Of a stretch of 64,000 nucleotides of DNA, positions 1 to 14,371 are shown piece by piece (the stretch's first letter is position 1; each line of letters starts with the position of its first letter). The stretch is from Elusimicrobiaceae bacterium (GTDB lineage Bacteria > Elusimicrobiota > Elusimicrobia > Elusimicrobiales > Elusimicrobiaceae). The stretch lies in contig JAFYXM010000003.1 of NCBI GenBank assembly GCA_017546175.1, positions 51,370 through 115,369 of the forward strand, given 5' to 3'. A program made the translations under genes and the position numbers. The notes beneath the pieces were generated by a model that ran no database searches, had not been told where the DNA came from, and was given only the letters and a program-made list of their open reading frames with translations.

Positions 1-2138
1 TAGGCACCGAAGAATAAGGTAAGATTTGGAACTCTTTGCCGGAGTTTATGACGTATGTGTTCCTATTAGGCACCGAAGAATAAGGTAAGATTTGTTATCT
101 TTTAAAGCTTTTATTTCAGTTTCTGTTCCTATTAGGCACCGAAGAATAAGGTAAGATTTGCGCACGTTCCACGGTTACGCTGATGGTGTAGTTCCTATTA
201 GGCACCGAAGAATAAGGTAAGATTTGTTTTTCATTATGATTCTGATAGCTGGGTGGGTTCCTATTAGGCACCGAAGAATAAGGTAAGATTTGTTACCGGT
301 TCATAATCTCCGGCTACAAGTTGTTCCTATTAGGCACCGAAGAATAAGGTAAGATTTGTTTTTTAAATTTTTGTGAGAAAGATTTTGAGTTCCTATTAGG
401 CACCGAAGAATAAGGTAAGATTTGAACCATTTTCCCGTCGTTATTAAATTTTGGGTTCCTATTAGGCACCGAAGAATAAGGTAAGATTTGGGATCAGAGA
501 AGCGGGAGCAATCCAAATCAGTTCCTATTAGGCACCGAAGAATAAGGTAAGATTTGCAAAAGCACCTGCGGTTTTGGTAGAATGTGTTCCTATTAGGCAC
601 CGAAGAATAAGGTAAGATTTGAATAAATATATTATTAGAAAGAGAAAAAAGGTTCCTATTAGGCACCGAAGAATAAGGTAAGATTTGGATACGTCAAAAA
701 GAGGCGTTGTGGCTGTTGTTCCTATTAGGCACCGAAGAATAAGGTAAGATTTGCTATTTTTTTTATTATACTATTAGTATAGAGTTCCTATTAGGCACCG
801 AAGAATAAGGTAAGATTTGTTTTTACGGTTAATGTTCGGGTTTATTTAGTTCCTATTAGGCACCGAAGAATAAGGTAAGATTTGCATAAAACTTGCCCAC
901 TAAAGGAGTGTGAAGTTCCTATTAGGCACCGAAGAATAAGGTAAGATTTGTTTGAGATTTTGACAGGAAAGCATAAAGGTGTTCCTATTAGGCACCGAAG
1001 AATAAGGTAAGATTTGTTAATAAGTGAAACAATGAACAAACAGAAAGTTCCTATTAGGCACCGAAGAATAAGGTAAGATTTGGATATTAAACAACGTATG
1101 GCAGCTACCGTAGTTCCTATTAGGCACCGAAGAATAAGGTAAGATTTGGCTTTAGGTTCGGGCGTTTTACGCGGTGAAGTTCCTATTAGGCACCGAAGAA
1201 TAAGGTAAGATTTGCTAAACGCTTTTTGTTTAATTCTGTGCCGAGTTCCTATTAGGCACCGAAGAATAAGGTAAGATTTGGCTTTCTCCGAAAGTCTATT
1301 TCTTAGTTAAGTTCCTATTAGGCACCGAAGAATAAGGTAAGATTTGGCTTTCTCCGAAAGTCTATTTCTTAGTTAAGTTCCTATTAGGCACCGAAGAATA
1401 AGGTAAGATTTGGGAAGACTTCGAAGACTATATGAGCCTGCAGTTCCTATTAGGCACCGAAGAATAAGGTAAGATTTGACTACCAAAAAATAGAAGTCTA
1501 TGCAAAGCGTTCCTATTAGGCACCGAAGAATAAGGTAAGATTTGCTAACAAAAGCACTTTGTCTTTTGCACCTAGTTCCTATTAGGCACCGAAGAATAAG
1601 GTAAGATTTGAAGAAATACGACCACACAGCTGTGCAGACGGTTCCTATTAGGCACCGAAGAATAAGGTAAGATTTGTAATTTTAAAATGATATGAAGATT
1701 TTCTTGGTTCCTATTAGGCACCGAAGAATAAGGTAAGATTTGCATTTTTTGCAAGTTACGCGCACTGCGGCCGTTCCTATTAGGCACCGAAGAATAAGGT
1801 AAGATTTGTTTAAAAAAATATCAAGTATTATTTTTGATGTTCCTATTAGGCACCGAAGAATAAGGTAAGATTTGACCGGAGAAGAAACTGACAATGAAGT
1901 TTTTGTTCCTATTAGGCACCGAAGAATAAGGTAAGATTTGCAACGAGCGTCTCCAAAGCTTCTTTTTGATGTTCCTATTAGGCACCGAAGAATAAGGTAA
2001 GATTTGTCGTCTTTATATAGTGTTGCCGGGGCGATTGTTCCTATTAGGCACCGAAGAATAAGGTAAGATTTGGACTACACCGTCTAAAGCATATGCGGTA
2101 CGGTTCCTATTAGGCACCGAAGAATAAGGTAAGATTTG
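1..2138 (+). CRISPR. CRISPR array: 32 full copies plus 1 edge-truncated copy of the 36-nt repeat GTTCCTATTAGGCACCGAAGAATAAGGTAAGATTTG; 32 spacers of 29-30 nt; array continues beyond window start
   Basis: Exact repeat found at 59,125,191,...,2037,2103 with 65-66 nt period; partial repeat at 1-28. All copies in the window are identical. The strand is inferred from the GTT... repeat start and from complementarity to the plus-strand tracrRNA anti-repeat. Confidence 0.98.
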
Positions 2139-2153
2139 TATAACTAAAAAATA

Positions 2154-2183
2154 TTGCGAAAATTTATACATTTTTACTATAAT
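2154..2183 (+). promoter_or_regulatory. sigma70-like promoter for tracrRNA (TTGCGA - 18 nt - TATAAT)
   Basis: TTGCGA at 2154-2159 and TATAAT at 2178-2183, placing a start site about 7 nt downstream, just before the anti-repeat. Confidence 0.6.
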
Positions 2184-2189
2184 ATTTAC

Positions 2190-2276
2190 AGAAACCTTAT
2201 TCTTATTTGTGCCTCAACTTAGGTAACAAGGGCATTAAAGCCCGCAAAGGGGTTAGTCCCCACTTAAATTCGTTTT
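2190..2276 (+). ncRNA. tracrRNA: tracrRNA (anti-repeat followed by two GC hairpins and a U-tail)
   Basis: 2194-2228 ACCTTATTCTTATTTGTGCCTCAACTTAGGTAAC is imperfectly complementary to the repeat: 11 bp with GAAGAATAAGGT, 6 bp with AGGCAC, and 7 bp with GTTCCTA plus a bulge. Downstream hairpins are GGGC-ATTAAA-GCCC (2230-2243) and GGGG-TTAG-TCCCC (2249-2261), then CGTTTT. The position between cas2 and the array fits type II loci. The ends are approximate. Confidence 0.8.
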
Positions 2277-2619
2277 AAAAATCCTCAAAGAGTATGAGTT
2301 GATCATACTTTTTGGGGATTTTTTCTTGTCGTAAGGCAGGACCATAGAAGTTTTTTGTAAGACCATATTGTTTATCGGTCATCATCATAAATGCACTTTT
2401 TCCTTGAGGAGGAGTTTGCGGACCTAACTGCTTGATGAGGGCTTGTGCTTGATGCATGGTAGGTAAATTGCGCACATACACGGAATATTGAAGCATAGTA
2501 AACCCATGATGAAGCAATAATTTTCTAAATCCTGCGTACCGCTTTCGCTGGACTTTGGTGTGCGTTGGTAAGTCAAAAACAGCTACTACCCACATAATAC
2601 GCCAACTATTGGGTTTCAT
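2275..2619 (-). CDS. cas2: CRISPR-associated endoribonuclease Cas2
   Basis: 114 aa with a Cas2-like ferredoxin-fold sequence (WVVAVFDLPT...YAGFRKLL...LQYSVYVR). Overlaps the cas1 stop by 14 nt. Confidence 0.9.
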   Translation of the reverse strand: MKPNSWRIMWVVAVFDLPTHTKVQRKRYAGFRKLLLHHGFTMLQYSVYVRNLPTMHQAQALIKQLGPQTPPQGKSAFMMMTDKQYGLTKNFYGPALRQEKIPKKYDQLILFEDF

Positions 2620-3589
2620 CTATAAATTGTCGTGTTTGCCACGATGTAACCGTAGAAGATTTTCCCGGACGAGAAGGAATATTAGGAAGTAGAAGTTTGC
2701 GACGGGGATCTTCCAAGCTGATACAATAACTGTTAATTGCCCAATCAATGCCATGAAATAAGCGGTATTCTTTTCCGGCAATTGAAACTGTACTAGACAA
2801 AAGAGAAGATAATATTTTCTTTTTTATATCTCTATCAAACGCGGAAATATTTTTTTGATAGAAGATATTCCAAACAATTTTATCTACTAAAAATCTAAAA
2901 GGCTCTATAAAATCATCAGCTAAATTAAAAGGATTGTCCTTACGGTGATGTCCGACCCCAAAATTTAAGCAAAGGCCCGCCCCCACCAAACCGCGTGCTA
3001 TAATAGCCCGAAGAACAGCATATCCGTAATTTAAAGATACATTAACGGGGTCCGTGGCGCCCTGTTTATCTCTAAAATCTACATTGGCATTTAAACTCTT
3101 AAAAAATGCTGGCCAATATATATGCGCGGCCTGTGCTTCTCTGCCGCTTTTATCGCCTAATTCAACATGACCAGCAATGATTTTTAAACGAGAGGACAAA
3201 TCGTCATCAAAAAAAGCCGCTGAGCAAGATTGACCATAAATTTTGGACTCTATTAGCTGTGACCACCATTTTTCAAATGTTTCTGTACTCAAGTACTTAG
3301 ACTGTAAAAAAGGTCGTTTAGCGCCGTCTATATTGGCTGCAACGGGCAAAGAAATGGCACAAGGCATATATTTCTCCCCCGCTGATACAATAACAGCACC
3401 GTTTTTGGATAACTCCTGATAAACAGCCAGTGACATAGTGATGCATGGATGAGATAAAATCAGCACAGCGATATCACAAGCGGCAATTAAATGCGTTTCC
3501 CCTGCTTGGGTAAATGTTATTTTAAGCCGCCCCGTATCAATAGAAATTTTAGCTTCTCTGTCTATACTGATTAAATGCTGTATGCTCAT
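2606..3589 (-). CDS. cas1: CRISPR-associated endonuclease Cas1 (type II)
   Basis: 327 aa with Cas1 motifs (LNYGYAVLRAIIARGLV, HHRKDNPFNLADDFIEPFR). 4-nt overlap with cas9. Confidence 0.93.
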   Translation of the reverse strand: MSIQHLISIDREAKISIDTGRLKITFTQAGETHLIAACDIAVLILSHPCITMSLAVYQELSKNGAVIVSAGEKYMPCAISLPVAANIDGAKRPFLQSKYLSTETFEKWWSQLIESKIYGQSCSAAFFDDDLSSRLKIIAGHVELGDKSGREAQAAHIYWPAFFKSLNANVDFRDKQGATDPVNVSLNYGYAVLRAIIARGLVGAGLCLNFGVGHHRKDNPFNLADDFIEPFRFLVDKIVWNIFYQKNISAFDRDIKKKILSSLLSSTVSIAGKEYRLFHGIDWAINSYCISLEDPRRKLLLPNIPSRPGKSSTVTSWQTRQFIDETQ

Positions 3590-6500
3590 CCGTTTTTAAG
3601 TTTTGCAATATCTTCACGAGAAGAAACCAAAGAGTAATTTTTGAGATTTGAAATATATGCCACGTTTCCAGTCGTTTCAGTAACCAGTCTTATTCCAACA
3701 CCGAATAAGGCAGCAAATTTCTGTACTTTATAGAACTGCTTATTTTCTTTATCAAACAAAATATCTCCTGCAAAGATTCTTACTATCCCTTCCGGAATTT
3801 GTTTTTGTTGTTGATATTTCCATAAGGGAATTAAGGCTACGCGTTTACCCGTTTTGGCATCAAAATCCATACAGGCATATCCATAATTCTGATAGCCTTT
3901 GCAATGTTGATTTCCTGATTTATCTTTGGAAATAACTTTTTTATCAGAATTTTCATCAAATTCACGTACACCGCGCCCCACCAAATACATATATTTCACT
4001 TTTTTTACTTTGTTTCCACGATAATAAATACCATCTAACGGATCATCTTTCTTTCCGCATAAAGCCTCTTCCTGCGTCATTCCTTTGGCTATACGCTCTT
4101 TAAATTGACGTAGAATTTCTTCTTTAATCGTATCTGTGAAAAGAAGTTTTTCTAAATTTTCAATTGTTTTCTTCTCATTGGCTTTCAAAAAACTACTCAG
4201 TTCTGCTCTTTTTACAAAACGTTCCACCCCCGTTTTATCTTTCACGACATTATAAGCCGTTTCATCAAAGAAAGCTCCGCTGGGATAGTGATCCGGTTTG
4301 TGCCATACCACATAATTTGTCAGGCGTTTTTGTACTTCTTGGCAAATTTTGGCATACTGAGGGATATTATCCAACATAAAGCCGGCAATATCCTTTTCGT
4401 GAATATGATTTCCGTTATCGTCTATGTATTCTATTTTGTGCAAAGTACCAAAATCCCGATGATGTTTTTCGGCACGTTGTAATAAAGACAAGTTGCACAA
4501 CCCAATGACCGCCGCATCTACGGCATGATGCCTATGATCACATCTCTTATTAAACTTTAATAACGTTTTTTGCTCAGCGCAGAATTTAGCAAAAGCTTTT
4601 TTCTTATCCTTTTCCGTTACAGGTTCTTCCTCTAAAGAAGATGAAAATACCTCAAAATCTTCTTTCAGTTCTTTCAAGTTGTGATAAGACAAACTTTCAT
4701 TAGAAAAAAGTTCCTTCCATTTTTTAGAATCAATTGATTTATTATCTTTATCTAAAAGTTCTTTTCCCTCCTCCAAACGGATATTGGGCAAAACTTTGTC
4801 AAACTGCAAATGACTGCGCAAATAGGCGGTCAGTTCTCCAAAGGTCGGCGTCACTTTCGGACAAACATCTTTACTCCAAGCTAAAACTATATCGCTGATC
4901 CATGCCGTCTGTTGTTTTTGACGATTGTTAAAATCATCTTTTAATTCGGAAGGAATCATTAATAAATTCTTAATCTTACGCAAAATACGCGCCCCTTTTT
5001 GGGAAGGTTTCCATTTTCGTTCTCTTTGGCAAAAATAACCTTTTTTCTCTTTAGAGTATAAAAGCCATAAATGTTGGACAAAGTTAATCAGCGGACTGTG
5101 TTTTCCAAAGGAAAAATCTTGAGTTTCCCCCTTTTTCTTTTTTTCTTTTATTTCCTTGCTAAATTCTCTATAATCATCTATATCTTCTTTAAATATCCAC
5201 TCGTAAGGAAGGCGATTAGATTTATCTTTATTTTTATCCGTAAAAGCCAAAACTTTGTTTTCAAACACATTCGGACCGGAAATATCTCCACGTTGCGGGA
5301 TAATGTGGTCCACTTGGGTCTGATGTTCGTCAAATGCCTGCTCAAAACTTATTGGATTACCGCTATAAGGGCAAGTTTTCTCCTGTTCCAACCACAACAA
5401 ATATTTTTCAATATTACGCGGTGTTACCAGTTTTTTATTCTCTTTTAATTCTTTAATAGCTTTTTGGCGTTCTTCGGCTTGTATTTTATTTTGACTTTCT
5501 AAAAACCGACGGCGGCTGAGTGAATTTTTCATTTCACGGGTCAGTTCCACCACCATTTCACTCGGCTGTCCGTATCTGTTAATAAGATAAGTCAAACTCT
5601 TGCGAAATTCTGTCAAAGCACGCAACATAACAGGGTCATTGATAGCCTCTTGGGCCTTAATAGCTTCTACACTGCGTAATTTACCCGAAGGACGTGGGTT
5701 GTGGTCAGCAAATTCTTGGATGATATCCGCCTCTTCTTCCCCTTGCAAAATTCTTTCCGTAAGCATTGTTAAAGCTTTCACACCATAGGCAGCACGGCCA
5801 GAAGTAAATTCTAAATTTTCTAAGCAATCTTTTTCCTTTAAGCATAAAACAAAATCTGTTCCTTGCTTTCTTTCTTCTGGACTGGAAAAAATATTTTTAG
5901 TTAAGGCATTAAATCTCTCTGTGATATAACTATTTGTATTATCAGAAATATCAGTTAAAGTAGTGATGTTGGCAAAAAACTCTATTACTAACTCTTGTAC
6001 CTTGTCCGTTAAATTGGACCATTCATTTAAAAAACCGATCTTTTCAAAAGCATAAGTGGTAGTATTTCCTTTTATTCCTTCTTTAGCCCCGTTTCGGCGA
6101 TCTGCTGTAAATCTAGCCGTCTGCGGTAAATTTAGCAAAGAATAAATCTTTTTAAAAGGAAAGCATAAAGTTTCGCTGGAATAATCGCTAGTAGCAGTGC
6201 GGATATGTTCAAAAAGATTGGCTTTTTGTGCCAAAGTCAAAGGGTGGGTTTCGCTCTCTCCTTTTTCTGCCCAACGCAAGTTGGCAATTTCTTTTACCAT
6301 GCGGTAAAGTTGATAGGCATTTTGGGCACAAGAAGCACGTTTTTCTTGAGGGAAGATAGAACAATTACCCACCGTTTCCAACTCCCATTTAATGGGACGT
6401 TGATAAAACATAGCCGAATAAAAAGCATCATGCAAAGCAATTTCTTTTTGATTAGGGAAATCGGGAAACATATTCTCACCCCAAACCTTATATGAAGTAT

Positions 6501-7143
6501 TTAATTGAGGATGATGCTTGCTCTGCTGCGCCCAAATTTTTTCAAATTCTTTTTCAATGGCTGTTCGGTATACAAAAGTACCGTCTTCTTCAATTTTACG
6601 CCAAGGCTGCCCTTTATCTGCCTTTTGTTTTTGCTCCCACAAAAGCTGCCCCAATGTCTTATCTTCACCTAAAAGAGTGTTGGTTTGCTTAATTTTTTTA
6701 CCAATTTTCCCCTGCTCCTCTTTTGATAAAAAACCTTTGTATCCTCTATTTTTAACAATATGAGAAAATACTTTCATCAGTTGCGGCAAGGAAATCTTTT
6801 CCTGCACCGCTTTTGCCCGAAGAAAAATAACATCTTCTTTATCCTGCTCTAAATCTTGCTTGGTAATGCCTAGTTGTTCAGCCATGTAGGTTAACTTTCG
6901 TAAACGAGCGGCTTTACGTTCAATTTGTCTACGAATTAACCGAGCAGAACGGCGAGAGGTATTTAAGGTTTCCATCTTTTTGGGCTCCACCGGTTCCCCA
7001 AAAATATAACTGTCCAAATGTTCTAAAGAAAGTATATTTCCCTTCTCATCTGTCTTATATACGGCAACACCTAAAGAGGAGGTCCCTAAATCAAACCCAA
7101 AACGATAAAAATTATCATAAGAAGTTAAAATTTCCTGTTTCAT
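3586..7143 (-). CDS. cas9: Cas9 endonuclease, type II-C architecture (1185 aa)
   Basis: RuvC-I FDLGTSSLGVAV (Asp18), Arg-rich bridge helix RRSARLIRRQIERKAARLRKL, HNH motif QVDHIIPQ...N..L, and RuvC-III HHAVDAAVIG. AAGGAG RBS at 7150-7155. No csn2 or cas4 in the locus. Confidence 0.95.
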   Translation of the reverse strand: MKQEILTSYDNFYRFGFDLGTSSLGVAVYKTDEKGNILSLEHLDSYIFGEPVEPKKMETLNTSRRSARLIRRQIERKAARLRKLTYMAEQLGITKQDLEQDKEDVIFLRAKAVQEKISLPQLMKVFSHIVKNRGYKGFLSKEEQGKIGKKIKQTNTLLGEDKTLGQLLWEQKQKADKGQPWRKIEEDGTFVYRTAIEKEFEKIWAQQSKHHPQLNTSYKVWGENMFPDFPNQKEIALHDAFYSAMFYQRPIKWELETVGNCSIFPQEKRASCAQNAYQLYRMVKEIANLRWAEKGESETHPLTLAQKANLFEHIRTATSDYSSETLCFPFKKIYSLLNLPQTARFTADRRNGAKEGIKGNTTTYAFEKIGFLNEWSNLTDKVQELVIEFFANITTLTDISDNTNSYITERFNALTKNIFSSPEERKQGTDFVLCLKEKDCLENLEFTSGRAAYGVKALTMLTERILQGEEEADIIQEFADHNPRPSGKLRSVEAIKAQEAINDPVMLRALTEFRKSLTYLINRYGQPSEMVVELTREMKNSLSRRRFLESQNKIQAEERQKAIKELKENKKLVTPRNIEKYLLWLEQEKTCPYSGNPISFEQAFDEHQTQVDHIIPQRGDISGPNVFENKVLAFTDKNKDKSNRLPYEWIFKEDIDDYREFSKEIKEKKKKGETQDFSFGKHSPLINFVQHLWLLYSKEKKGYFCQRERKWKPSQKGARILRKIKNLLMIPSELKDDFNNRQKQQTAWISDIVLAWSKDVCPKVTPTFGELTAYLRSHLQFDKVLPNIRLEEGKELLDKDNKSIDSKKWKELFSNESLSYHNLKELKEDFEVFSSSLEEEPVTEKDKKKAFAKFCAEQKTLLKFNKRCDHRHHAVDAAVIGLCNLSLLQRAEKHHRDFGTLHKIEYIDDNGNHIHEKDIAGFMLDNIPQYAKICQEVQKRLTNYVVWHKPDHYPSGAFFDETAYNVVKDKTGVERFVKRAELSSFLKANEKKTIENLEKLLFTDTIKEEILRQFKERIAKGMTQEEALCGKKDDPLDGIYYRGNKVKKVKYMYLVGRGVREFDENSDKKVISKDKSGNQHCKGYQNYGYACMDFDAKTGKRVALIPLWKYQQQKQIPEGIVRIFAGDILFDKENKQFYKVQKFAALFGVGIRLVTETTGNVAYISNLKNYSLVSSREDIAKLKNG

Positions 7144-7177
7144 AATCCGCTCCTTAAAGAAAAAATCTATTAACTGT

Positions 7178-7183
7178 ATTATA
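7178..7183 (-). promoter_or_regulatory. candidate -10 box (TATAAT) of a cas9 promoter
   Basis: TATAAT on the minus strand about 35 nt upstream of the cas9 ATG, downstream of the terminator that ends the preceding operon. The -35 element is unclear. Confidence 0.35.
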
Positions 7184-7248
7184 CTTTTTTATCAAAAAAA
7201 TAATATAAATTATTTATCTTCCTGCCAAAATTTAAAAAAAGACTTTAT

Positions 7249-7294
7249 CAAAAAATATTTAGAGATGGATTTTATTTTTTCAATCCATCTCTAA
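7249..7294 (-). terminator. Rho-independent terminator after the HTH-WYL gene
   Basis: Perfect 13-bp inverted repeat TTAGAGATGGATT / AATCCATCTCTAA (7259-7271 / 7282-7294), followed on the minus strand by ATATTTTTT. Confidence 0.75.
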
Positions 7295-7308
7295 AACAAA
7301 CAAATTTT

Positions 7309-8235
7309 TTATATCTTTTTTTTCTTAGCTTGATAACTGGCCAATATTGTTTCTATTTGCTTGGATAGTTCCGTCGGTTCTTGCACCATAATATGCGGCA
7401 GCCACGCCAAAATGGTGGGCAAAATCTCTTCGTACTTACCTGTAAAACACTCCAAAACAAGACCGTCTTTGGCTGATTTTTTGACTACTTTTTGTTTTGG
7501 GAAGTACTCCTTCTTTTCAAAATAAGGGGCAACTTCGGGGTCTACAAGCAGTTCCACTCGTTTATCGCGCTTATCCTCAAACCATACGGAGGCACTTTCT
7601 TCCAAAATCTTTTCTATCTTTTTGGGCCGTTTGAAGGAAACACCCGTGGGCTTGAGTTCTTTAATTTTATCCAAGCGGAGTTTTAAAATCACATCATCTT
7701 TACCAAGGGCAAGCAAATACCAAAAACCGTCAAACCAAGCGATTTTAAGCGGAGAAATATCTCTGCCCGACAATTTGGACTTATCATACACAATCGTCAA
7801 TTTTTCCTGCTTTTTAATAGCTTTTTCTATCAGTTTACTGTGGGTATCGTCTAAAAAAGCCTGTCCTTTAGGGAGTTTAATGTAAAAGGGGTTTTCTTTA
7901 TCGTTCTGCAAAATGCGGTCCCTCAGGCTGACATAGGTTTCTTGGAAACTTCCCCCCAAAGTACCTGCAATACTGGACAAAAGGGCCAACATGGCGGCTT
8001 CTTTGGCGCTGAGTTGCAGTTTCTGCAAGGAATACCCTTCCACAAAAGCGTACTCCCCTTTACTGGGGTTAGCGATAGGGAAACCCGCACTTTCCAAAAT
8101 CTTTATATCGCGCTGAATGGTGCGCACATTTACCATGAGTTCATCGGCAATATCTGCCAAATACACTTCGCCTTTATCAAACTCGCCTAAAATATACATC
8201 AGACGACTGATTTTATTTAATGTATCCCCTAGCAT
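7309..8235 (-). CDS. HTH-WYL (YafY/PafC-like) transcriptional regulator
   Basis: N-terminal wHTH (ADIADELMVNVRTIQRDIKILESAGFPI), central WYL domain (LTIVYDKS...RDISPLKIAWFDGFWYLLALGKDD...LRLDKIKEL), and a C-terminal WCX-like extension. Confidence 0.85.
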   Translation of the reverse strand: MLGDTLNKISRLMYILGEFDKGEVYLADIADELMVNVRTIQRDIKILESAGFPIANPSKGEYAFVEGYSLQKLQLSAKEAAMLALLSSIAGTLGGSFQETYVSLRDRILQNDKENPFYIKLPKGQAFLDDTHSKLIEKAIKKQEKLTIVYDKSKLSGRDISPLKIAWFDGFWYLLALGKDDVILKLRLDKIKELKPTGVSFKRPKKIEKILEESASVWFEDKRDKRVELLVDPEVAPYFEKKEYFPKQKVVKKSAKDGLVLECFTGKYEEILPTILAWLPHIMVQEPTELSKQIETILASYQAKKKKI

Positions 8236-8269
8236 AAAGCCCCCTTGATATGTTTTGTATATTAAAGCA

Positions 8270-9469
8270 TTATTTCTCTTTCTTTGCTTTCTTTTGCCAA
8301 GGTTTGGGCTCGTTGGAGGCTTTTACAACACCTAACGGAGTCAGTTTGACCAAGATTTTCACCAAGTCTTTTTGGTTTTCCATTACCTCGTCAATATTCT
8401 TATACGCGCTGGGGGCTTCGTCTAACAGGCCTTGCTCGTTCATGCGGTGCACAATGCCTTGGCTGTTTAAGATTTCCTGCTCGTGGGCCAAATCTAAATC
8501 TTTCATGGCTCTGCTGCGCGACATGCACCGCCCTGCCCCATGGGAACAAGATTGCAAAGAACTCTCGTTTCCTAAGCCCTGCACAATGTAGGAGCTCGTT
8601 CCCTGAGAACCGGGGATAATGCCCGTCGTATTTTCGCGTGCCAAAGTGGCCCCTTTGCGGTGCACCCATACTTTGCGGTTGTAATGCTCTTCCGCCGCGG
8701 CGTAGTTGTGGTGGATATTAATTTCCTGTACAAACTCCGCTTGCGGAAATTCTTCCAAAAACACCTTTTTGATAGACGTGGCAATCATTTTGCGGTTTTC
8801 AAAGGCAAAATCCAAGCAGAGTTTCATTTCATTAATATAATCGCCTGCTTCTCGTGTACCGATAGGAAGAAAAGCCAAATCTTGCTTGGCGATTTCTTCT
8901 TGCTTAAACATAGTGCAGAGTTTAACGGCTTTGTCGTTGTAATACTCGGCTACCTGTTTGCCCAAGTTGCGGCTGCCGCTGTGAATCATAAACCAAATGT
9001 GCCCGTCACTGCCGCGCTGAATTTCTATAAAGTGGTTTCCCCCACCCAACGTGCCGATTTGCTTTTGGGCGGAGAAAAATTCCCTTTTACATACTTCCGT
9101 CTTATTCCAACGGGTCAAATCCTGAAAAAGCGGGTTTTCCTGCGCTTCTTTATGGTGAGTAAACCCTACCGGCACGCGGTCGTAGATTTTATCTACAATG
9201 GCCTGCACTTTATCGCGCGTAATATCCGTAAGGCTCGTCTGTACGGCCAACATACCGCACCCGATATCCACCCCTACCATGTTGGGAGAAATGGCATTAT
9301 CTAAGGCCACTACCCCGCCAATAGGCATACCATAACCGCAATGGGCATCGGGCATCAAGCACACATTTCCCACCAAACAAGGGTGCTTAGATAAGTTTTG
9401 CACCTGTTGCATAGCCGCAGGCTCTAAATTTTTACACCAAGATAAAATGTTTTCTGCTAATTGTTCCAT
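8270..9469 (-). CDS. rtcB: RNA-splicing ligase RtcB (3'-phosphate/5'-hydroxyl RNA ligase)
   Basis: 399 aa with all metal/GMP-His motifs present: MPDAHCGYG, GGGNHFIE, IHSGSRNLG, NIHHNYA, SCSHGAGR. Confidence 0.95.
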   Translation of the reverse strand: MEQLAENILSWCKNLEPAAMQQVQNLSKHPCLVGNVCLMPDAHCGYGMPIGGVVALDNAISPNMVGVDIGCGMLAVQTSLTDITRDKVQAIVDKIYDRVPVGFTHHKEAQENPLFQDLTRWNKTEVCKREFFSAQKQIGTLGGGNHFIEIQRGSDGHIWFMIHSGSRNLGKQVAEYYNDKAVKLCTMFKQEEIAKQDLAFLPIGTREAGDYINEMKLCLDFAFENRKMIATSIKKVFLEEFPQAEFVQEINIHHNYAAAEEHYNRKVWVHRKGATLARENTTGIIPGSQGTSSYIVQGLGNESSLQSCSHGAGRCMSRSRAMKDLDLAHEQEILNSQGIVHRMNEQGLLDEAPSAYKNIDEVMENQKDLVKILVKLTPLGVVKASNEPKPWQKKAKKEK

Positions 9470-9479
9470 AATTCATTCC

Positions 9480-9944
9480 TTATACACCTAGTATTTCTAT
9501 TTGGTCTCCATCTTTCATGACAAATTCTGTCCAAGCAAATATATCATCAAGCATACTATCTATTTCTTTATGATCGCTCCATACAGCATCAGGGTAATTG
9601 GTTAAACTATATGTATAATCATAATCGATTTCTTGCTTTACCTGTTGGACATAATCATACATATCCTTAAACGAATTAAAACGAACGAGTTTTCGCGCCT
9701 CATTGAGTAGTTTTAGCCAATCTTGTTTTTTTAATGCATAGCATTCATATATATCTAATCCGCTAAGATCTATTACTATTCCATAAGCAACTGCCAAAAA
9801 TAAGAAATCATCTAGATTGATATAAAGTTGATTTAATCTTCTATCATCCGAAGGGTAACAGTACAATACAATATAGTCGGTAGTATTTCTTTCTTGATTC
9901 AGCTTTTTACTTTTTGGTTTAAAAACTAGATTATTGTTCGTCAT
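9480..9944 (-). CDS. hypothetical protein (154 aa), first gene of the rtcB operon
   Basis: The ORF-track frame was trimmed to the ATG at 9944, which is preceded by AGGAAG. It lies 10 nt upstream of rtcB. I recognise no motif. Confidence 0.6.
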   Translation of the reverse strand: MTNNNLVFKPKSKKLNQERNTTDYIVLYCYPSDDRRLNQLYINLDDFLFLAVAYGIVIDLSGLDIYECYALKKQDWLKLLNEARKLVRFNSFKDMYDYVQQVKQEIDYDYTYSLTNYPDAVWSDHKEIDSMLDDIFAWTEFVMKDGDQIEILGV

Positions 9945-9970
9945 AAGACTTTTTCTTCCTAATCTATAGT

Positions 9971-9994
9971 AAAAACCAAGGGAAAGACTCCCTT
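9971..9994 (-). terminator. terminator-like hairpin immediately upstream of the hyp154 RBS (possible attenuator)
   Basis: On the minus strand: AAGGGA-GTCTT-TCCCTT followed by GGTTTTT. Sits in the leader of the rtcB operon. Confidence 0.35.
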
Positions 9995-10097
9995 TCCACC
10001 CTAGCACGCACTTAAGCGCTTCCTAGGCAGTGGAAAGGTGCATACTTAGAATCCTCTCCTAGGCAGGACTTCCACAATAGTCTTTCCATTGGCACAT

Positions 10098-10134
10098 CAA
10101 AAAGGATAGCCGATCTCTAGGAATCGGACCTTTT
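10098..10134. terminator. bidirectional terminator-like hairpin flanked by an A-tract and a T-tract
   Basis: AAAAAGG-ATAG-CCGAT-CTCTAGGA-ATCGG-A-CCTTTTT. A second ATCGG copy at 10137-10141 offers an alternative pairing partner. Confidence 0.4.
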
Positions 10135-10199
10135 TGTATCGGAGCAGAGACCAGGTGTATGCAACCCTGTGCTAACCCCGACACTTATATCGTAGCATA

Positions 10200-10271
10200 C
10201 GTACGCGACAGCGTATGGTCGTATTAAAAAATATTTTTAAAAAATTTATCACGACCTACTGTTGTCGCGTA
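10200..10271. promoter_or_regulatory. 22-nt-arm imperfect inverted repeat around an AT-rich core; candidate operator with back-to-back divergent promoters
   Basis: GTACGCGACA (10200-10209) pairs perfectly with TGTCGCGTAC (10262-10271), and GGTCGT (10216-10221) with ACGACC (10250-10255). The core is ATTAAAAAATATTTTTAAAAAATTTATC. Candidate plus-strand promoter: TTATCA (10245-10250) - 18 nt - TACTAA (10269-10274). Candidate minus-strand promoter: GTGATA (10251-10246) - 18 nt - TTTAAT (10227-10222). Confidence 0.5.
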
Positions 10272-10280
10272 CTAATGTTA

Positions 10281-10628
10281 TGATAGATATATGAGTAGCA
10301 AAGCGTGGAGATAAAACCTACAGACCGAAGCGCTTGCTACCCAAAAAGATAGGTTTTATAGTAACTCTGTGCAAGTAGAGATGGAGATCTTCTATATTCC
10401 CTATTTAAAAGGCAAAAGGCGGGCTAGACTTGCCAACAGACACGGCTTGCGTAAGCGTGTGAGGCATTTTTAGTTCACCTTTAACCTAAGGGGTGTTAGG
10501 TATTGGCAGTTCTGCTTAACAGTATTTCGGGCACCCGCCCGATCCAGAGCCATGGGGAACAGCACTCCTATAAGCGCTCGGGTTTTACTTAGAGCAGTCT
10601 GAGATACTGCCTAGCACCCTTTTTATTT
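10281..10628 (+). ncRNA. candidate structured RNA or long leader upstream of the NTase operon, ending in a U-tract
   Basis: No ORF of 60 aa or more on either strand. Multiple complementary segments: 10294-10304/10330-10339, 10310-10319/10349-10358, 10439-10447/10452-10459, 10491-10497/10611-10617, 10504-10509/10605-10610, 10511-10518/10588-10596, and the hairpin CGGGC-ACCC-GCCCG at 10527-10540. CTTTTTATTTT at 10618-10628. The 5' end is a guess from the candidate promoter. Confidence 0.4.
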
Positions 10629-10663
10629 TAGAGCTTTATCGCACAAAAACTTATCATACAATT

Positions 10664-11425
10664 ATGAAAGAGAAGATCATTAAAAAATTAGAAGAACTGG
10701 AAAAAGAGCACCATATCAAAATCTTTCACGCGGTGGAATCGGGAAGCCGTGCGTGGGGGTTCGCATCGCAAGACAGCGATTATGATGTCCGCTTTTTGTA
10801 TTATCACCGCCCCGAGTGGTATTTTTCGGTTTCAAAGCAAGCAGATAACCTTGTGCAAATGCAAGAAAACAATTTACTGGATTTTGCCGGCTGGGAACTG
10901 AAAAAAACTTTGCTTTTGCTTATCAAGGGGAATATGTCCTTATATGAGTGGATACATAGCCCTATTGTCTATAAACAAAGCAAAGAATTTGATGCTTTCC
11001 AAGCACTTGCCCAAGAGTTCTACAATCCCAAAGCATTAATGTTTTCATATGTAGGGCTAGCAGAAAACAACTGCAAAGCCTATGCCGACAGAGAAAAGCC
11101 AAAACTTAAAAAGTATTTGTACATTTTGCGCACTTTAGCGGCTTGCCACTGGATAGAACAACGGAAAACTCCTCCCCCCATAGAAATGGATAAACTGAAG
11201 GAAGTTTTCCGCCACGAACCGCTTATATGGGACTTCTTAAACAACTTGATTGAGGAGAAAAAGAAAGGGACAGAGCTGGGCGTTATAGATTCCCCTGTGC
11301 TTATTAACCGGTGGATAGAAGAACAACTATCCTATTATAAGAAGTTAGCCGACAGGTTGCCCGACTCGGTAAAAGATACGACTCTTTTATCAAACTTCTT
11401 TTATAAGACAGTCATGGAGAGATAA
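10664..11425 (+). CDS. Pol-beta superfamily nucleotidyltransferase, RlaP-like (RNA-ligase-associated NTase, COG3541-like)
   Basis: 253 aa with NTase motif ESGSRAWGFASQDSDYDVRFLY (GS...DxD) and a helical C-terminal region. Neighbours rtcB. No clear SD before the ATG. Confidence 0.7.
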   Translation: MKEKIIKKLEELEKEHHIKIFHAVESGSRAWGFASQDSDYDVRFLYYHRPEWYFSVSKQADNLVQMQENNLLDFAGWELKKTLLLLIKGNMSLYEWIHSPIVYKQSKEFDAFQALAQEFYNPKALMFSYVGLAENNCKAYADREKPKLKKYLYILRTLAACHWIEQRKTPPPIEMDKLKEVFRHEPLIWDFLNNLIEEKKKGTELGVIDSPVLINRWIEEQLSYYKKLADRLPDSVKDTTLLSNFFYKTVMER

Positions 11426-11426
11426 A

Positions 11427-11729
11427 ATGAAAACGATTTTATTTGATATAGACGGTACATTGGCAGACTGAAACGGACGGGAAAAGTTCTTAAAACAAGA
11501 AAAACCTGATTGGAAGAACTTTAACGCTAAAGAGGTAAAACAAGATATACTAAACTCCCTCAGAACCCAAGGAAAGGATATTCTTTTTACCATAGATGAC
11601 CGCCAAAGTGTAGTGGATATGTGGCGTGCTAATGGTATTACTTGTTTACAATGTAAAAAAGGAATTATTAGCTTTTATTTTTCGGTAAAATATACAATAA
11701 GCATAATAAAAACATCTATGAGGGTATAG
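11427..11729 (+). pseudogene. decayed HAD-family (T4 Pnk-type) polynucleotide 3'-phosphatase: in-frame TGA at codon 15 and apparent internal deletion
   Basis: MKTILFDIDGTLAD-TGA-NGREKFLKQEKPDWKNF...GKDILFTIDDRQSVVDMWRANGITCLQCKKG. HAD motif I (DxDGT) and motif IV (DD) plus the VVDMW..G..C.Q tail are recognisable. The roughly 60 aa that normally carry motifs II/III are missing. Confidence 0.6.
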
Positions 11730-11731
11730 TA

Positions 11732-12703
11732 ATGTCTTTATTCTTTCTTTTGGCTTTAATCGGAGGATGGTGTCTTATTTTTTGGATAGCCACCCTAATG
11801 GGCAGAAAAGATTTTGCAGTCAATCTTTTTCCGATATTTTTTTTCGTGGTAATAGCCTATTTGTGGGTAAATGCCAACAAGGATACTTATTGGTTCCGAG
11901 GTATTTTCGCAAAACCTGCCGGTAAGCCAAAAGATTTTGTACTACCCCCCAAAAAAACTATCTCTGACGAAACTACCTCCTATTACAGAAAAATAAAAGA
12001 GGCATTAAAATCAAAAAGCGATATTTGCTTTGAATACACCAATATGCAAGGCCAAACTGCCACAAGGCATGTAAGGCCCACGGAAATTTATTTTGCCGGA
12101 TACGGAAAAGTTTACATAAAGGGATTTGATTTAGATAAACAAGAGGAGCGTAATTTTAAGGTGGAAAAAATGAAAAATTTACAAATCCTTTCAAGTAGCC
12201 AAACAAAGAGTACGGATAAAAACTCCGAGTTTCTTTTAACATTAAAAACTTACTCAAAAACCATTTTTATCTTAATCGGCATACAGGCAAGCGGCAAGAG
12301 TTCTTTTGCCAATAGATTTCTGGGAAATTGCACCCACATCAGCCTAGACCAGTTAAACACAAGACGAAACGAAGAAACGGCCTTAAAAGTGGCTCTTCTG
12401 ATAATGAAAGAAAACTGTGTAATAGATAACACCAACCCCACTCGCCAAGAACGCCAAAAATACATTGATTTGGGGAAAAAAGCCGGTTATAAAATAGTGG
12501 GGCTCTATTTTAGCTCCGCAATTAACGAATGTATTAAACGCAACGACAAACGCTTCGGCAAGGCAAAAATACCGCTCAAAGGCCTGCTTGCCACCGCCAA
12601 ACGCTTGCAACAACCGTCTTTGCAGGAAGGGTTTGATGAACTATACTATGTAAAAATAGAAAACAAAGAATTTGTTATTTCCAAATGGGACGAAACACTA
12701 TGA
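11732..12703 (+). CDS. membrane-anchored WYL domain fused to a P-loop polynucleotide-kinase-like (AAA_33) domain
   Basis: Two N-terminal hydrophobic helices (LFFLLALIGGWCLIFWIATL, LFPIFFFVVIAYLWV). WYL-like module ICFEYTNMQGQTATRHVRPTEIYFAGYGKVYIKGFDLDKQEERNFKVEKMKNL. Kinase features: Walker A ILIGIQASGKSSF, then SLDQL, IDNTN and R-rich lid motifs. RBS GAGGG. Confidence 0.75.
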   Translation: MSLFFLLALIGGWCLIFWIATLMGRKDFAVNLFPIFFFVVIAYLWVNANKDTYWFRGIFAKPAGKPKDFVLPPKKTISDETTSYYRKIKEALKSKSDICFEYTNMQGQTATRHVRPTEIYFAGYGKVYIKGFDLDKQEERNFKVEKMKNLQILSSSQTKSTDKNSEFLLTLKTYSKTIFILIGIQASGKSSFANRFLGNCTHISLDQLNTRRNEETALKVALLIMKENCVIDNTNPTRQERQKYIDLGKKAGYKIVGLYFSSAINECIKRNDKRFGKAKIPLKGLLATAKRLQQPSLQEGFDELYYVKIENKEFVISKWDETL

Positions 12704-13455
12704 AATTTGATGAATTTGATAAAAAAATGAGAAAGTTTGAGGAATCGTTGGATCAGGTTATCCCTTCCACTTCCTTTATGGTGGCCCGCCTTGACGGTAA
12801 GGGTTTTACCAAATTAACCAAGAAAGATATGGTTTTGGAAAAACCCTTTGATATCCGATTCAGGGACGCCGTCATCAATACGATTAAATATCTCATGAAC
12901 GGATATTTCCAAATTGCATATGCATACAATGAAAGTGATGAAATTTCTCTTTTATTCAAATCCAATGCAGATAAATTCGGCCGAAAAGTACGCAAATATA
13001 ATTCTATTCTGGCAGCCGAAACCAGTGTGCATTTTTCCCAACAAATCGCACAAAACGCCATTTTTGATTGCCGCATGATTGCCTTGCCCGATATAGAAGC
13101 CGTACAAGATTATTTTGCGTGGCGGCAGACTGATTCCAACCGAAATTCCGTTCTGGCGCATTGTTATTATAAACTGGTAGCCGATGGAAAAACCCCGCAG
13201 GAGGCCGCCGCTTACTTACGCAATTTGCCTTTTCGCGATAAAGTACAGCTTTTGGCTCATTTTGGCATGGAATTAAACGATATTCCCAAGTGGCAACTAT
13301 ACGGAAGTGCCGTCTATTGGCAAGAAAATATCAAACAAGGGCTTAACCCTGCCACCCACACTTCCCAACAGACACTGCGCCATACGCTGACGGTAAATTA
13401 TGACTTACCCGTCGGGGAAGAGTATCGCCGTTTTATTACCCGACAAATTACTTAA
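12700..13455 (+). CDS. Thg1-like protein (TLP), tRNA 3'-5' nucleotidyltransferase
   Basis: MKFDEFDKKMRKFE..., ARLDGKGFTKLTK, EKPFDIRFRD, YNESDEISLLF, FGRKVRKYNSILAAETS. The start was chosen at the ATGA overlap with the upstream stop (12700-12703). Confidence 0.85.
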   Translation: MKFDEFDKKMRKFEESLDQVIPSTSFMVARLDGKGFTKLTKKDMVLEKPFDIRFRDAVINTIKYLMNGYFQIAYAYNESDEISLLFKSNADKFGRKVRKYNSILAAETSVHFSQQIAQNAIFDCRMIALPDIEAVQDYFAWRQTDSNRNSVLAHCYYKLVADGKTPQEAAAYLRNLPFRDKVQLLAHFGMELNDIPKWQLYGSAVYWQENIKQGLNPATHTSQQTLRHTLTVNYDLPVGEEYRRFITRQIT

Positions 13456-13465
13456 CAGGATAATT

Positions 13466-14371
13466 ATGACAAAAAAGAATGTAGAAAAAGAATCTTCCTT
13501 TGAAGGAAAAAAAGATGAGGCTTTAGGAGATCTTTGGGATTGGTTAAATATCAGACGAGAGGATTTGCCTCATTATATCAACTATATTGCAGAAAATGCT
13601 TTTTCTCTGACTTCTGCCAAAAAACCTTTGTTTCAAAATCCCTATAAGCTTTCACAAGTATATCCCCGTTGGCCGGTAGATATGCGCTTTTTATTAACCA
13701 CTACTCATGATCCTAAAAAAGAAACGCGCAATTTGAACTCTTTTTGTATTTTAATGAGAGGTTATCCTAATATTTTAAAAATTACTGAAGTTTTCCCATG
13801 GAAAAGCGGGGTAGAGGGATATGTTAGCGGATCGTTAAATGATGGGCCGTCGGTTGATTTTCTCGCCCCGTTATTTTATCGGGAAGAAGACAAATATCAT
13901 ATAAATATTTGGGTTACGGTCTATCTGAGTGCCATAGCCCTAAAAATGCAGCCAGCTTCGGAAGAAATATTCAATTTTTCCGATGGAGAGCTATATGAAA
14001 TAATGCTAAAAGATTTTTTGAAAGAAAATCCAAGCAAAACAAAAAAAGATTTTCCTCATATTAGGGTATCTACCAAAAATATGACTGCTTTTCTGCCTAC
14101 TGAAACAACCTCTCTCTACCAATACAGAGCAAAAATCTTGAGAGTATTACAGATGGATCCTTTTGAGGATATAGAAATGCACAGCCTATTAGTATTGCTG
14201 ACAGGAAAGTCTCCTAAAAACTCATTAACAATCAATTTGTATGTTAAGAAAAGTGACCTTAATGGATATACCCCCCAAAAAGGTGATTTTATAGAGGGAA
14301 TTTTATGGATGTTTGGCACAACCCACTTTATGACGGGTGCAGTTCCAACAAGCAATGATGTTGTAGAGTAA
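13466..14371 (+). CDS. hypothetical protein (301 aa), last gene of the plus-strand repair operon
   Basis: The ORF-track frame was trimmed to the ATG at 13466 (AGGATAA upstream), 10 nt after the TLP stop. No recognisable motif. Confidence 0.6.
   Translation: MTKKNVEKESSFEGKKDEALGDLWDWLNIRREDLPHYINYIAENAFSLTSAKKPLFQNPYKLSQVYPRWPVDMRFLLTTTHDPKKETRNLNSFCILMRGYPNILKITEVFPWKSGVEGYVSGSLNDGPSVDFLAPLFYREEDKYHINIWVTVYLSAIALKMQPASEEIFNFSDGELYEIMLKDFLKENPSKTKKDFPHIRVSTKNMTAFLPTETTSLYQYRAKILRVLQMDPFEDIEMHSLLVLLTGKSPKNSLTINLYVKKSDLNGYTPQKGDFIEGILWMFGTTHFMTGAVPTSNDVVE

Follow-up and report, generated by a model that had tools for sequence, protein, structure and literature searches.

The 64,000-nucleotide stretch of DNA analysed here, referred to as the window, comes from an Elusimicrobiaceae bacterium (assembly GCA_017546175.1, contig JAFYXM010000003.1, positions 51,370 to 115,369 of the forward strand) and carries a gene for a WYL-domain transcription factor between the RNA ligase gene rtcB and the cas9 gene of a CRISPR system. 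The genes orf154, rtcB, the WYL regulator, cas9, cas1 and cas2 were all found on the minus strand in that order, and the intergenic gaps of 10 nt (orf154-rtcB) and 34 nt (rtcB-WYL) are compatible with one rtcB operon. A divergent RNA-repair operon (10664-14371, plus strand), separated from the rtcB operon by a 656-nt gap, encodes an RlaP nucleotidyltransferase, a kinase that resembles polynucleotide kinase (PNK) and carries a WYL domain, a Thg1-like enzyme and orf323; together with the rtcB operon it is a classic RNA-repair gene set. Homologues also point to the Elusimicrobiaceae as the family of the source organism. No assignment was obtained for orf154 or orf323 in Pfam, NCBIfam, PADLOC, PHROG or the PDB. 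The gene calls bear out the layout given in the initial annotation, in which the rtcB operon closes with the regulator gene, whose end lies 165 nt before cas9 on the same strand. The strong terminator and the TATAAT that it had reported between the two genes are also both there, the latter as a -10 hexamer on the minus strand at 7178-7183. The terminator hairpin folds at -18.3 kcal/mol (z = -4.8), none of 200 shuffled sequences folded as well, and it was missed by a simple terminator scan because its loop is 10 nt long.

The inverted repeat GTACGCGACA...TGTCGCGTAC at 10188-10285 resolved into two 18-bp palindromes, one per strand. Each palindrome (GCGAC-N8-GTCGC, the WYL box) is followed after exactly 10 nt by the -10 hexamer TAnnnT, and in this composite element a -35 consensus is absent and the box stands in its place. 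A position weight matrix (PWM) trained solely on related loci, with the window excluded, scored both sites highly (Table 1). These two sites, arranged back to back, were the only matches to the composite element in the 64-kb window, where the chance expectation was 0.82. The half-site GTACGCGACA singled out by the initial annotation is real and forms part of a conserved operator in both divergent promoters. Its proposal that the regulator co-controls rtcB, the divergent operon and perhaps cas9 is supported for the first two, as boxes were found in both promoters, and is not supported for cas9, where no box was found. Judged from these operators, control by the regulator is very probable for the rtcB operon and for the divergent operon alike.

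Table 1. Features of the rtcB-WYL-cas9 locus, in window coordinates.
Feature	Position	Strand	Details
CRISPR array	1-2140	+	36-nt repeats, 30-nt spacers, at least 32 repeats; extends past the window start
Candidate trans-activating CRISPR RNA (tracrRNA)	2190-2330	+	convergent with cas2; promoter-like TTGCGA-18-TATAAT 2154-2183, anti-repeat 2195-2214, terminator-like stem 2278-2322
cas2	2275-2619	-	TIGR01573
cas1	2606-3589	-	TIGR03639
cas9	3586-7143	-	TIGR01865, E 3e-116; 1185 aa
cas9 proximal promoter and 5' untranslated region block	7144-7228	-	contains TATAAT; no WYL box
Intergenic WYL-cas9 region	7144-7308		165 nt
Intrinsic terminator after the WYL gene	7248-7295	-	14-bp stem 7258-7295, 10-nt loop, U-run UAUUUUUU
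HTH_11-WYL-WCX transcription factor	7309-8235	-	Pfam HTH_11, WYL, WCX; 308 aa; last gene of the rtcB operon
RtcB RNA ligase	8270-9469	-	Pfam RtcB, E 4e-111
orf154, conserved protein	9480-9944	-	first gene of the rtcB operon; 88% identity in L081, 46% in L085
Structured leader or noncoding RNA	9966-10183	-	218 nt; -86.4 kcal/mol, z = -5.2; closing stem and U-run
WYL-box promoter for orf154-rtcB-WYL	10189-10222	-	palindrome 10205-10222, N10, -10 TACGAT; PWM 46 bits
WYL-box promoter for the RlaP operon	10251-10284	+	palindrome 10251-10268, N10, -10 TATGAT 10279-10284; PWM 36 bits
Structured leader or noncoding RNA ahead of RlaP	10292-10632	+	341 nt; -115.7 kcal/mol, z = -4.3; long closing stem and U-run
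RlaP nucleotidyltransferase	10664-11425	+	Pfam RlaP, E 2e-70
WYL-PNK-like kinase	11732-12703	+	Pfam WYL and AAA_33
Thg1-like enzyme	12685-13455	+	Pfam Thg1 and Thg1C
orf323	13400-14371	+	no family assignment

All related loci that were examined had the same composite element at the rtcB promoter or at the divergent promoter. Approximately 90 family loci (L001-L102, for example L048, L064, L068 and L079; Elusimicrobiota, Omnitrophota and Scalindua) contained 182 matches to the composite pattern, and TAnnnT stood at offset 10 in 123 of 132 non-redundant palindromes (every other offset, 2-23). The genes behind boxes in relatives include those for RtcB, RlaP, DUF2828/DUF7788, an HAD_PNKP phosphatase and the WYL factor itself, and further tandem AAA ATPases, a PIF1-like helicase, a GIY-YIG nuclease, DUF2779 and PAD_porph; cas genes were absent among them. 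The gene found most often downstream of a box encodes a tandem AAA ATPase of approximately 650 aa (19 cases). At 10205-10299 of L085, and also in L086, a divergent pair of WYL boxes lies between an orf175-HAD_PNKP operon and hsdM of a type I restriction-modification (R-M) system. The box facing hsdM in this lineage is well formed (30.8 bits), which indicates that this regulator family can drive a defence operon, but by way of a box, and the R-M operon of L085/L086 seems to belong to the family's regulon. In L096, GCGAC-N17-GTCGG occurs in the stretch from HAD_PNKP to cas6, but this pair was discarded as a chance match, as it had the wrong spacing, no phased -10 and a score below 12 bits.

The protein had been described as an HTH-WYL regulator, and its Pfam matches agree with this description, HTH_11 (34.5 bits), WYL (36.4 bits) and WCX (27.8 bits) all scoring above the gathering cut-offs. 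The order of secondary structure elements in an AlphaFold model (pLDDT 78.6) matches a winged helix-turn-helix (wHTH), a central Sm-like WYL domain and a C-terminal WCX domain for dimerisation, as in the HTH-WYL-WCX class. When the PDB was searched with a profile of 19 homologues, the nearest solved sequences were PafBC (6sj9, E 5e-10) and DriD (8tp8, E 8e-10), and there was no BrxR or CapW match. Foldseek with the model likewise gave DriD (E 5e-12) and PafBC (E 6e-12) as the best matches, compared to E 1e-7 to 1e-5 for CapW and BrxR. Assignment to BrxR/CapW was rejected in view of these weaker fold matches and the lack of a sequence match; the usual position of such a gene, as the leading gene of a defence operon that it represses and with an operator in that promoter, was also not found, the regulator gene instead closing the rtcB operon. 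No CARF, AAA+ or Sigma54_activat match, the hallmark of RtcR, was found in the regulator.

Residues R38 and R42 of the recognition helix are invariant and have the spacing of PafB R46 and R50, which read guanine (PMC8635444). In the WYL domain, the basic residues that bind single-stranded DNA (ssDNA) form an RxxR motif, R204/R207 in both DriD and SiwR. Its first position would correspond to R187, which is invariant in 19 homologues, and its second to K190 in the regulator and to R, K or N in relatives. Sequence and model thus predict that the regulator joins the DriD/PafBC/SiwR-like WYL factors as a new member and that it serves RNA repair, a task held elsewhere by RtcR; given this regulon, RNA fragments and ssDNA are both plausible ligands of its WYL domain.

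These findings point, with a probability of about 0.72, to a WYL activator that runs an RtcB-centred RNA-repair divergon through the box, N10 and TAnnnT, next to which cas9 would be a neighbour in a variable slot and not a direct target. In this mechanism, a homodimer of the regulator would recognise the GCGAC-N8-GTCGC palindrome defined in silico, its WYL domain would bind a single-stranded nucleic-acid ligand and, by analogy with its characterised relatives, the ligand-bound factor would probably help a sigma70-type RNA polymerase to start at promoters that have no -35 element. The minus-strand box would fire the shorter structured RNA together with orf154-rtcB-WYL, and the plus-strand box would fire the longer one together with RlaP, the WYL-kinase, the Thg1-like enzyme and orf323. 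Because the WYL gene lies inside the box-driven rtcB operon, positive autoregulation would follow. The genes cas9-cas1-cas2 would form a separate unit with their own promoter behind the terminator. We infer activation of transcription upon binding of single-stranded nucleic acid to the WYL domain from no more than homology and the strictness of the phasing. Several observations weigh against this reading. Of the two arginines with which DriD and SiwR contact the ligand, the second appears to be a lysine here (K190), so that the ligand could differ and may be ssDNA or RNA. The terminator is absent from the WYL-cas9 spacers of L002 and L003, which makes read-through into cas9 possible in those genomes. 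CRISPR-Cas genes lie within 3 kb of the RtcB-WYL module in seven of approximately 14 lineages, which is above random placement. Finally, overlap of the box with the core promoter also suits a repressor such as BrxR or CapW.

Such a repressor would sit on the core promoters of the divergon and be released upon binding of ssDNA. WYL repressors of defence islands are known to bind inverted repeats in promoters (PMC9122601, PMC13622015), and members of the present family were found in defence and prophage contexts, which together with the overlapping position of the box would fit such a role. However, a phasing of box and -10 that is kept to the single nucleotide in 123 of 132 palindromes, combined with the lack of a -35 element, is what would be expected of an integral activator element, and steric block needs neither. 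The greater distance of CapW and BrxR by fold and the lack of any sequence match to them also argue against repression, which we regard as unlikely.

The initial annotation had proposed that RNA repair and the type II-C system are under joint control of the regulator, which could occur through a non-canonical site at cas9 or through read-through from rtcB. The two genes are indeed 165 nt apart on the same strand, and their adjacency is not confined to a single genome, as it recurs in L091, L092, L002/L093-95 and L003, with the cas operon nearby in L005 and L010. The missing terminator in L002 and L003 and the box that faces hsdM in L085/L086 could be taken in its favour as well. However, a search for the half-site upstream of cas9, as the initial annotation had suggested, detected neither GTACGCGACA nor the palindrome within 2 mismatches, and in none of the genomes was cas9 preceded by a box or half-site. 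The best operator-only PWM score in 7144-7308 was -13.6 bits, a value attained or exceeded by 99.7% of segments of equal size. In the whole of 1-7308, which includes cas9, the tracrRNA and the array, the best scores were 5.8 bits for the composite element and 1.75 bits for the operator only, compared to 36-46 bits at the true sites. Moreover, no box above 12 bits was found before the cas operon in L091, L092, L002/L093-95, L003, L005, L010 or the type III-A loci L096-98. The cognate operator is missing here and in eight related cas-adjacent loci, and in the window the strong terminator, which is identical in L091, separates the two units; the suggestion of a WYL regulator of a Cas9 system is not upheld.

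Conservation of the promoter block of cas9 does not depend on the type of cas9. The sequence at 7144-7228 of the window is approximately 84-88% identical to 11076-11151 of L092, which occupies the approximately 85 nt before cas9 there, though the two cas9 genes are unrelated, and this indicates that one cas cassette took the place of another while the promoter in front was kept. In addition, the cas operon of L010 lies upstream of the rtcB promoter, an opposite-strand gene lies between the module and the cas operon in L005, and two close orthologues of the regulator (86% and 81% identity) have no cas9. Co-regulation of cas9 with RNA repair is therefore considered very improbable; cas9-cas1-cas2 is most likely, on these sequence comparisons, an independently transcribed neighbour and not a direct target of the regulator.

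The reason for the adjacency appears to lie in the slot beside the RtcB-WYL module, which holds three unrelated CRISPR-Cas cassettes, R-M genes, a mobile element or nothing. The same II-C lineage was found in L091, L002/L093-95, L003 and L005, and beside a tRNA gene upstream of the rtcB promoter in L010. An unrelated II-C system, with a Cas9 of 1043 aa (approximately 28% identity in patches) and 29% identity in Cas1, occupies the slot in L092, and a type III-A system with Card1 occupies it in L096-98. The other loci contain a type I R-M system (L085/L086), an orphan methyltransferase (L099/L100), an element with serine recombinase, Fic and TrwB genes (L081-84), a gene for a DUF192 protein (L101/L102) or no defence genes (L001 and L004). 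Variable cargo of this kind is the behaviour of a defence island or integration hotspot, and it explains the adjacency without shared regulation. At 1-85 of L010, the 3' end of the tRNA gene is followed directly downstream by the cas9 operon, which fits an integration hotspot. Homologues of the regulator at 60% identity or less were mostly found neither beside RtcB nor beside cas genes.

It is also conceivable, though improbable, that the RtcB-WYL module is a conserved defence-island anchor of the Elusimicrobiaceae behind which CRISPR types are swapped, that its sensor reads fragments made by the defence systems, and that the structured RNAs are cofactors resembling Y RNAs. Coupling at the level of the signal, with CRISPR or restriction fragments as the WYL ligand and RNA repair kept near defence as a recovery arm, would agree with the repeated filling of the slot by defence systems that are unrelated to one another (II-C of two lineages, III-A together with Card1, type I R-M and a methyltransferase), with ssDNA as the ligand of related WYL factors and with the WYL domain fused to a PNK-like kinase in the divergent operon, but it is scarcely probable, as defence-island clustering accounts for the pattern without a functional link, the slot is free of defence genes in the close relatives L001, L004 and L101, no damage to RNA by Cas9 is known, and the lineages are few and phylogenetically non-independent.

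Between each box promoter and the first gene behind it lies a structured RNA that finishes in a closing stem and a U-run. The minus-strand RNA has 89% identity to that of L085 and contains one helix with three compensatory pairs, and the plus-strand RNA is conserved in L091 (96%) and L092 (83%). Rfam, searched with the whole window at gathering thresholds and with 7100-11800 at E up to 5, returned nothing relevant and matched neither RNA. In the Salmonella rsr-yrlBA-rtcBA operon, Y-RNA genes are embedded with rtcBA. The two box-driven RNAs may be attenuator leaders or Y-RNA-like partners or cofactors.

The WYL-PNK-like kinase, read from the predicted start codon, begins with two hydrophobic segments that resemble transmembrane helices, followed by the WYL domain and the P-loop kinase; a membrane-anchored RNA-end kinase, if true, would be unusual. 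A close similarity between the WYL domains of the regulator and the kinase fusion, considered as a hint at a common ligand, was not found, BLASTP giving no significant alignment (E 7.2). The space between rtcB and the WYL gene, 34 nt at 8236-8269 of the window, holds extra genes in relatives, encoding a 362-aa protein and/or an ankyrin-repeat protein in L091 (5596-7631), a near-identical strain (98% identity of the WYL protein), and in L092 (9066-9941), an 87% relative. In other relatives it holds a gene for a tetratricopeptide-repeat protein or for a protein of 433-439 aa, in some cases together with an additional box immediately upstream of the WYL gene (L010 9821, L085 7946).

The CRISPR-Cas neighbour was recognised as type II-C, as stated earlier, from cas9-cas1-cas2 without csn2 or cas4, no open reading frame of which was found at the cas operon, and from the array and a predicted tracrRNA. 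The candidate tracrRNA contains the anti-repeat ACCTTATTCTTATTTGTGCC, its terminator overlaps the 3' end of cas2, and this arrangement implies plus-strand transcription of the array, against the direction of the cas genes. The hairpin in the WYL-cas9 spacer was ruled out as a tracrRNA, the sole anti-repeat being that beside the array. In L092, the WYL-cas9 spacer is longer and has a GC-rich segment (10922-11060) that ends in CCTTCCACTTTTTTT and includes GTTCCTATT, which equals the first 9 nt of the CRISPR repeat of the window. This GC-rich segment may represent either a small RNA or what is left of a repeat.

Of the characterised systems, DriD, the ssDNA-activated WYL activator of Caulobacter crescentus, is the closest by fold and has the same series of wHTH, helical linker, WYL and WCX. 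The DriD site, ATACGAC(N7)GTCGTAT, lies in the -35 position at a constant distance to the -10 across its promoters (PMC10853764, PMC13004042). Both factors share a palindromic CGAC...GTCG site, a fixed distance to the -10, promoters without a recognisable -35 and a box at their own operon. In contrast, the half-sites are separated by N7 in DriD and by N8 here, sequence identity is approximately 18%, the DriD motif has two arginines where the regulator appears to have one arginine and a lysine, and DriD governs a DNA-damage regulon whereas the genes here are those of RNA repair (RtcB, RlaP, Thg1 and the PNK-like kinase). The actinobacterial factors PafBC and SiwR, which act by sigma adaptation at a -26 element, share the promoter grammar of a GTCG-type element, N10, TAnnnT and no -35. 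The PafBC consensus is tGTCgg(N10)tA(N3)T at this element, without a -35 (PMC8635444), and SiwR, which binds a palindrome at -26 as a homodimer (PMC10693628), further resembles the predicted mode of the regulator. PafBC, the top sequence match in the PDB, differs in being a heterodimer on a non-palindromic site that it binds only with RNA polymerase, and both PafBC and SiwR differ in regulon and in phylum, the regulator belonging to the Elusimicrobiota.

RtcR, the CARF-AAA+ sigma54 activator of rtcBA, occupies the same niche of a fragment-sensing activator beside rtcB with RNA genes in the operon, but it is unrelated in sequence and fold, and the window promoters have a -10 of the sigma70 type. 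BrxR and CapW, the repressors of BREX (bacteriophage exclusion) and CBASS (cyclic oligonucleotide-based antiphage signalling) systems, have the same domain order, inverted-repeat operators and a defence-island setting. They differ in lying upstream of the defence operon that they repress, whereas the regulator gene comes last in an RNA-repair operon and the defence genes have no operator in front of them. Sll7009 of type I-D and WYL1 of type VI-D are, as here, WYL-domain proteins encoded beside cas genes; WYL1 differs in its ribbon-helix-helix domain and in acting on the Cas13d protein and RNA, and its structure (6oaw) was a weak fold match at rank 27. The comparative analysis gave no sign of an action of the window WYL protein on Cas9.

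These findings do not support a claim that this locus holds the first WYL protein to regulate a Cas9 system. The locus instead offers a clean example of a fixed promoter behind which cas operons were exchanged and provides two unclassified structured RNA candidates under WYL-box control. A WYL activator of the DriD/PafBC kind appears to run RNA repair in bacteria that have no RtcR. The occurrence of the grammar GCGAC-N8-GTCGC, N10 and TAnnnT across at least three phyla suggests that activation without a -35 element, of the kind seen in sigma adaptation at the -26 element, is far commoner than the few actinobacterial and Caulobacter examples imply, and with this grammar the regulons of hundreds of WYL factors not yet characterised could be predicted in silico.

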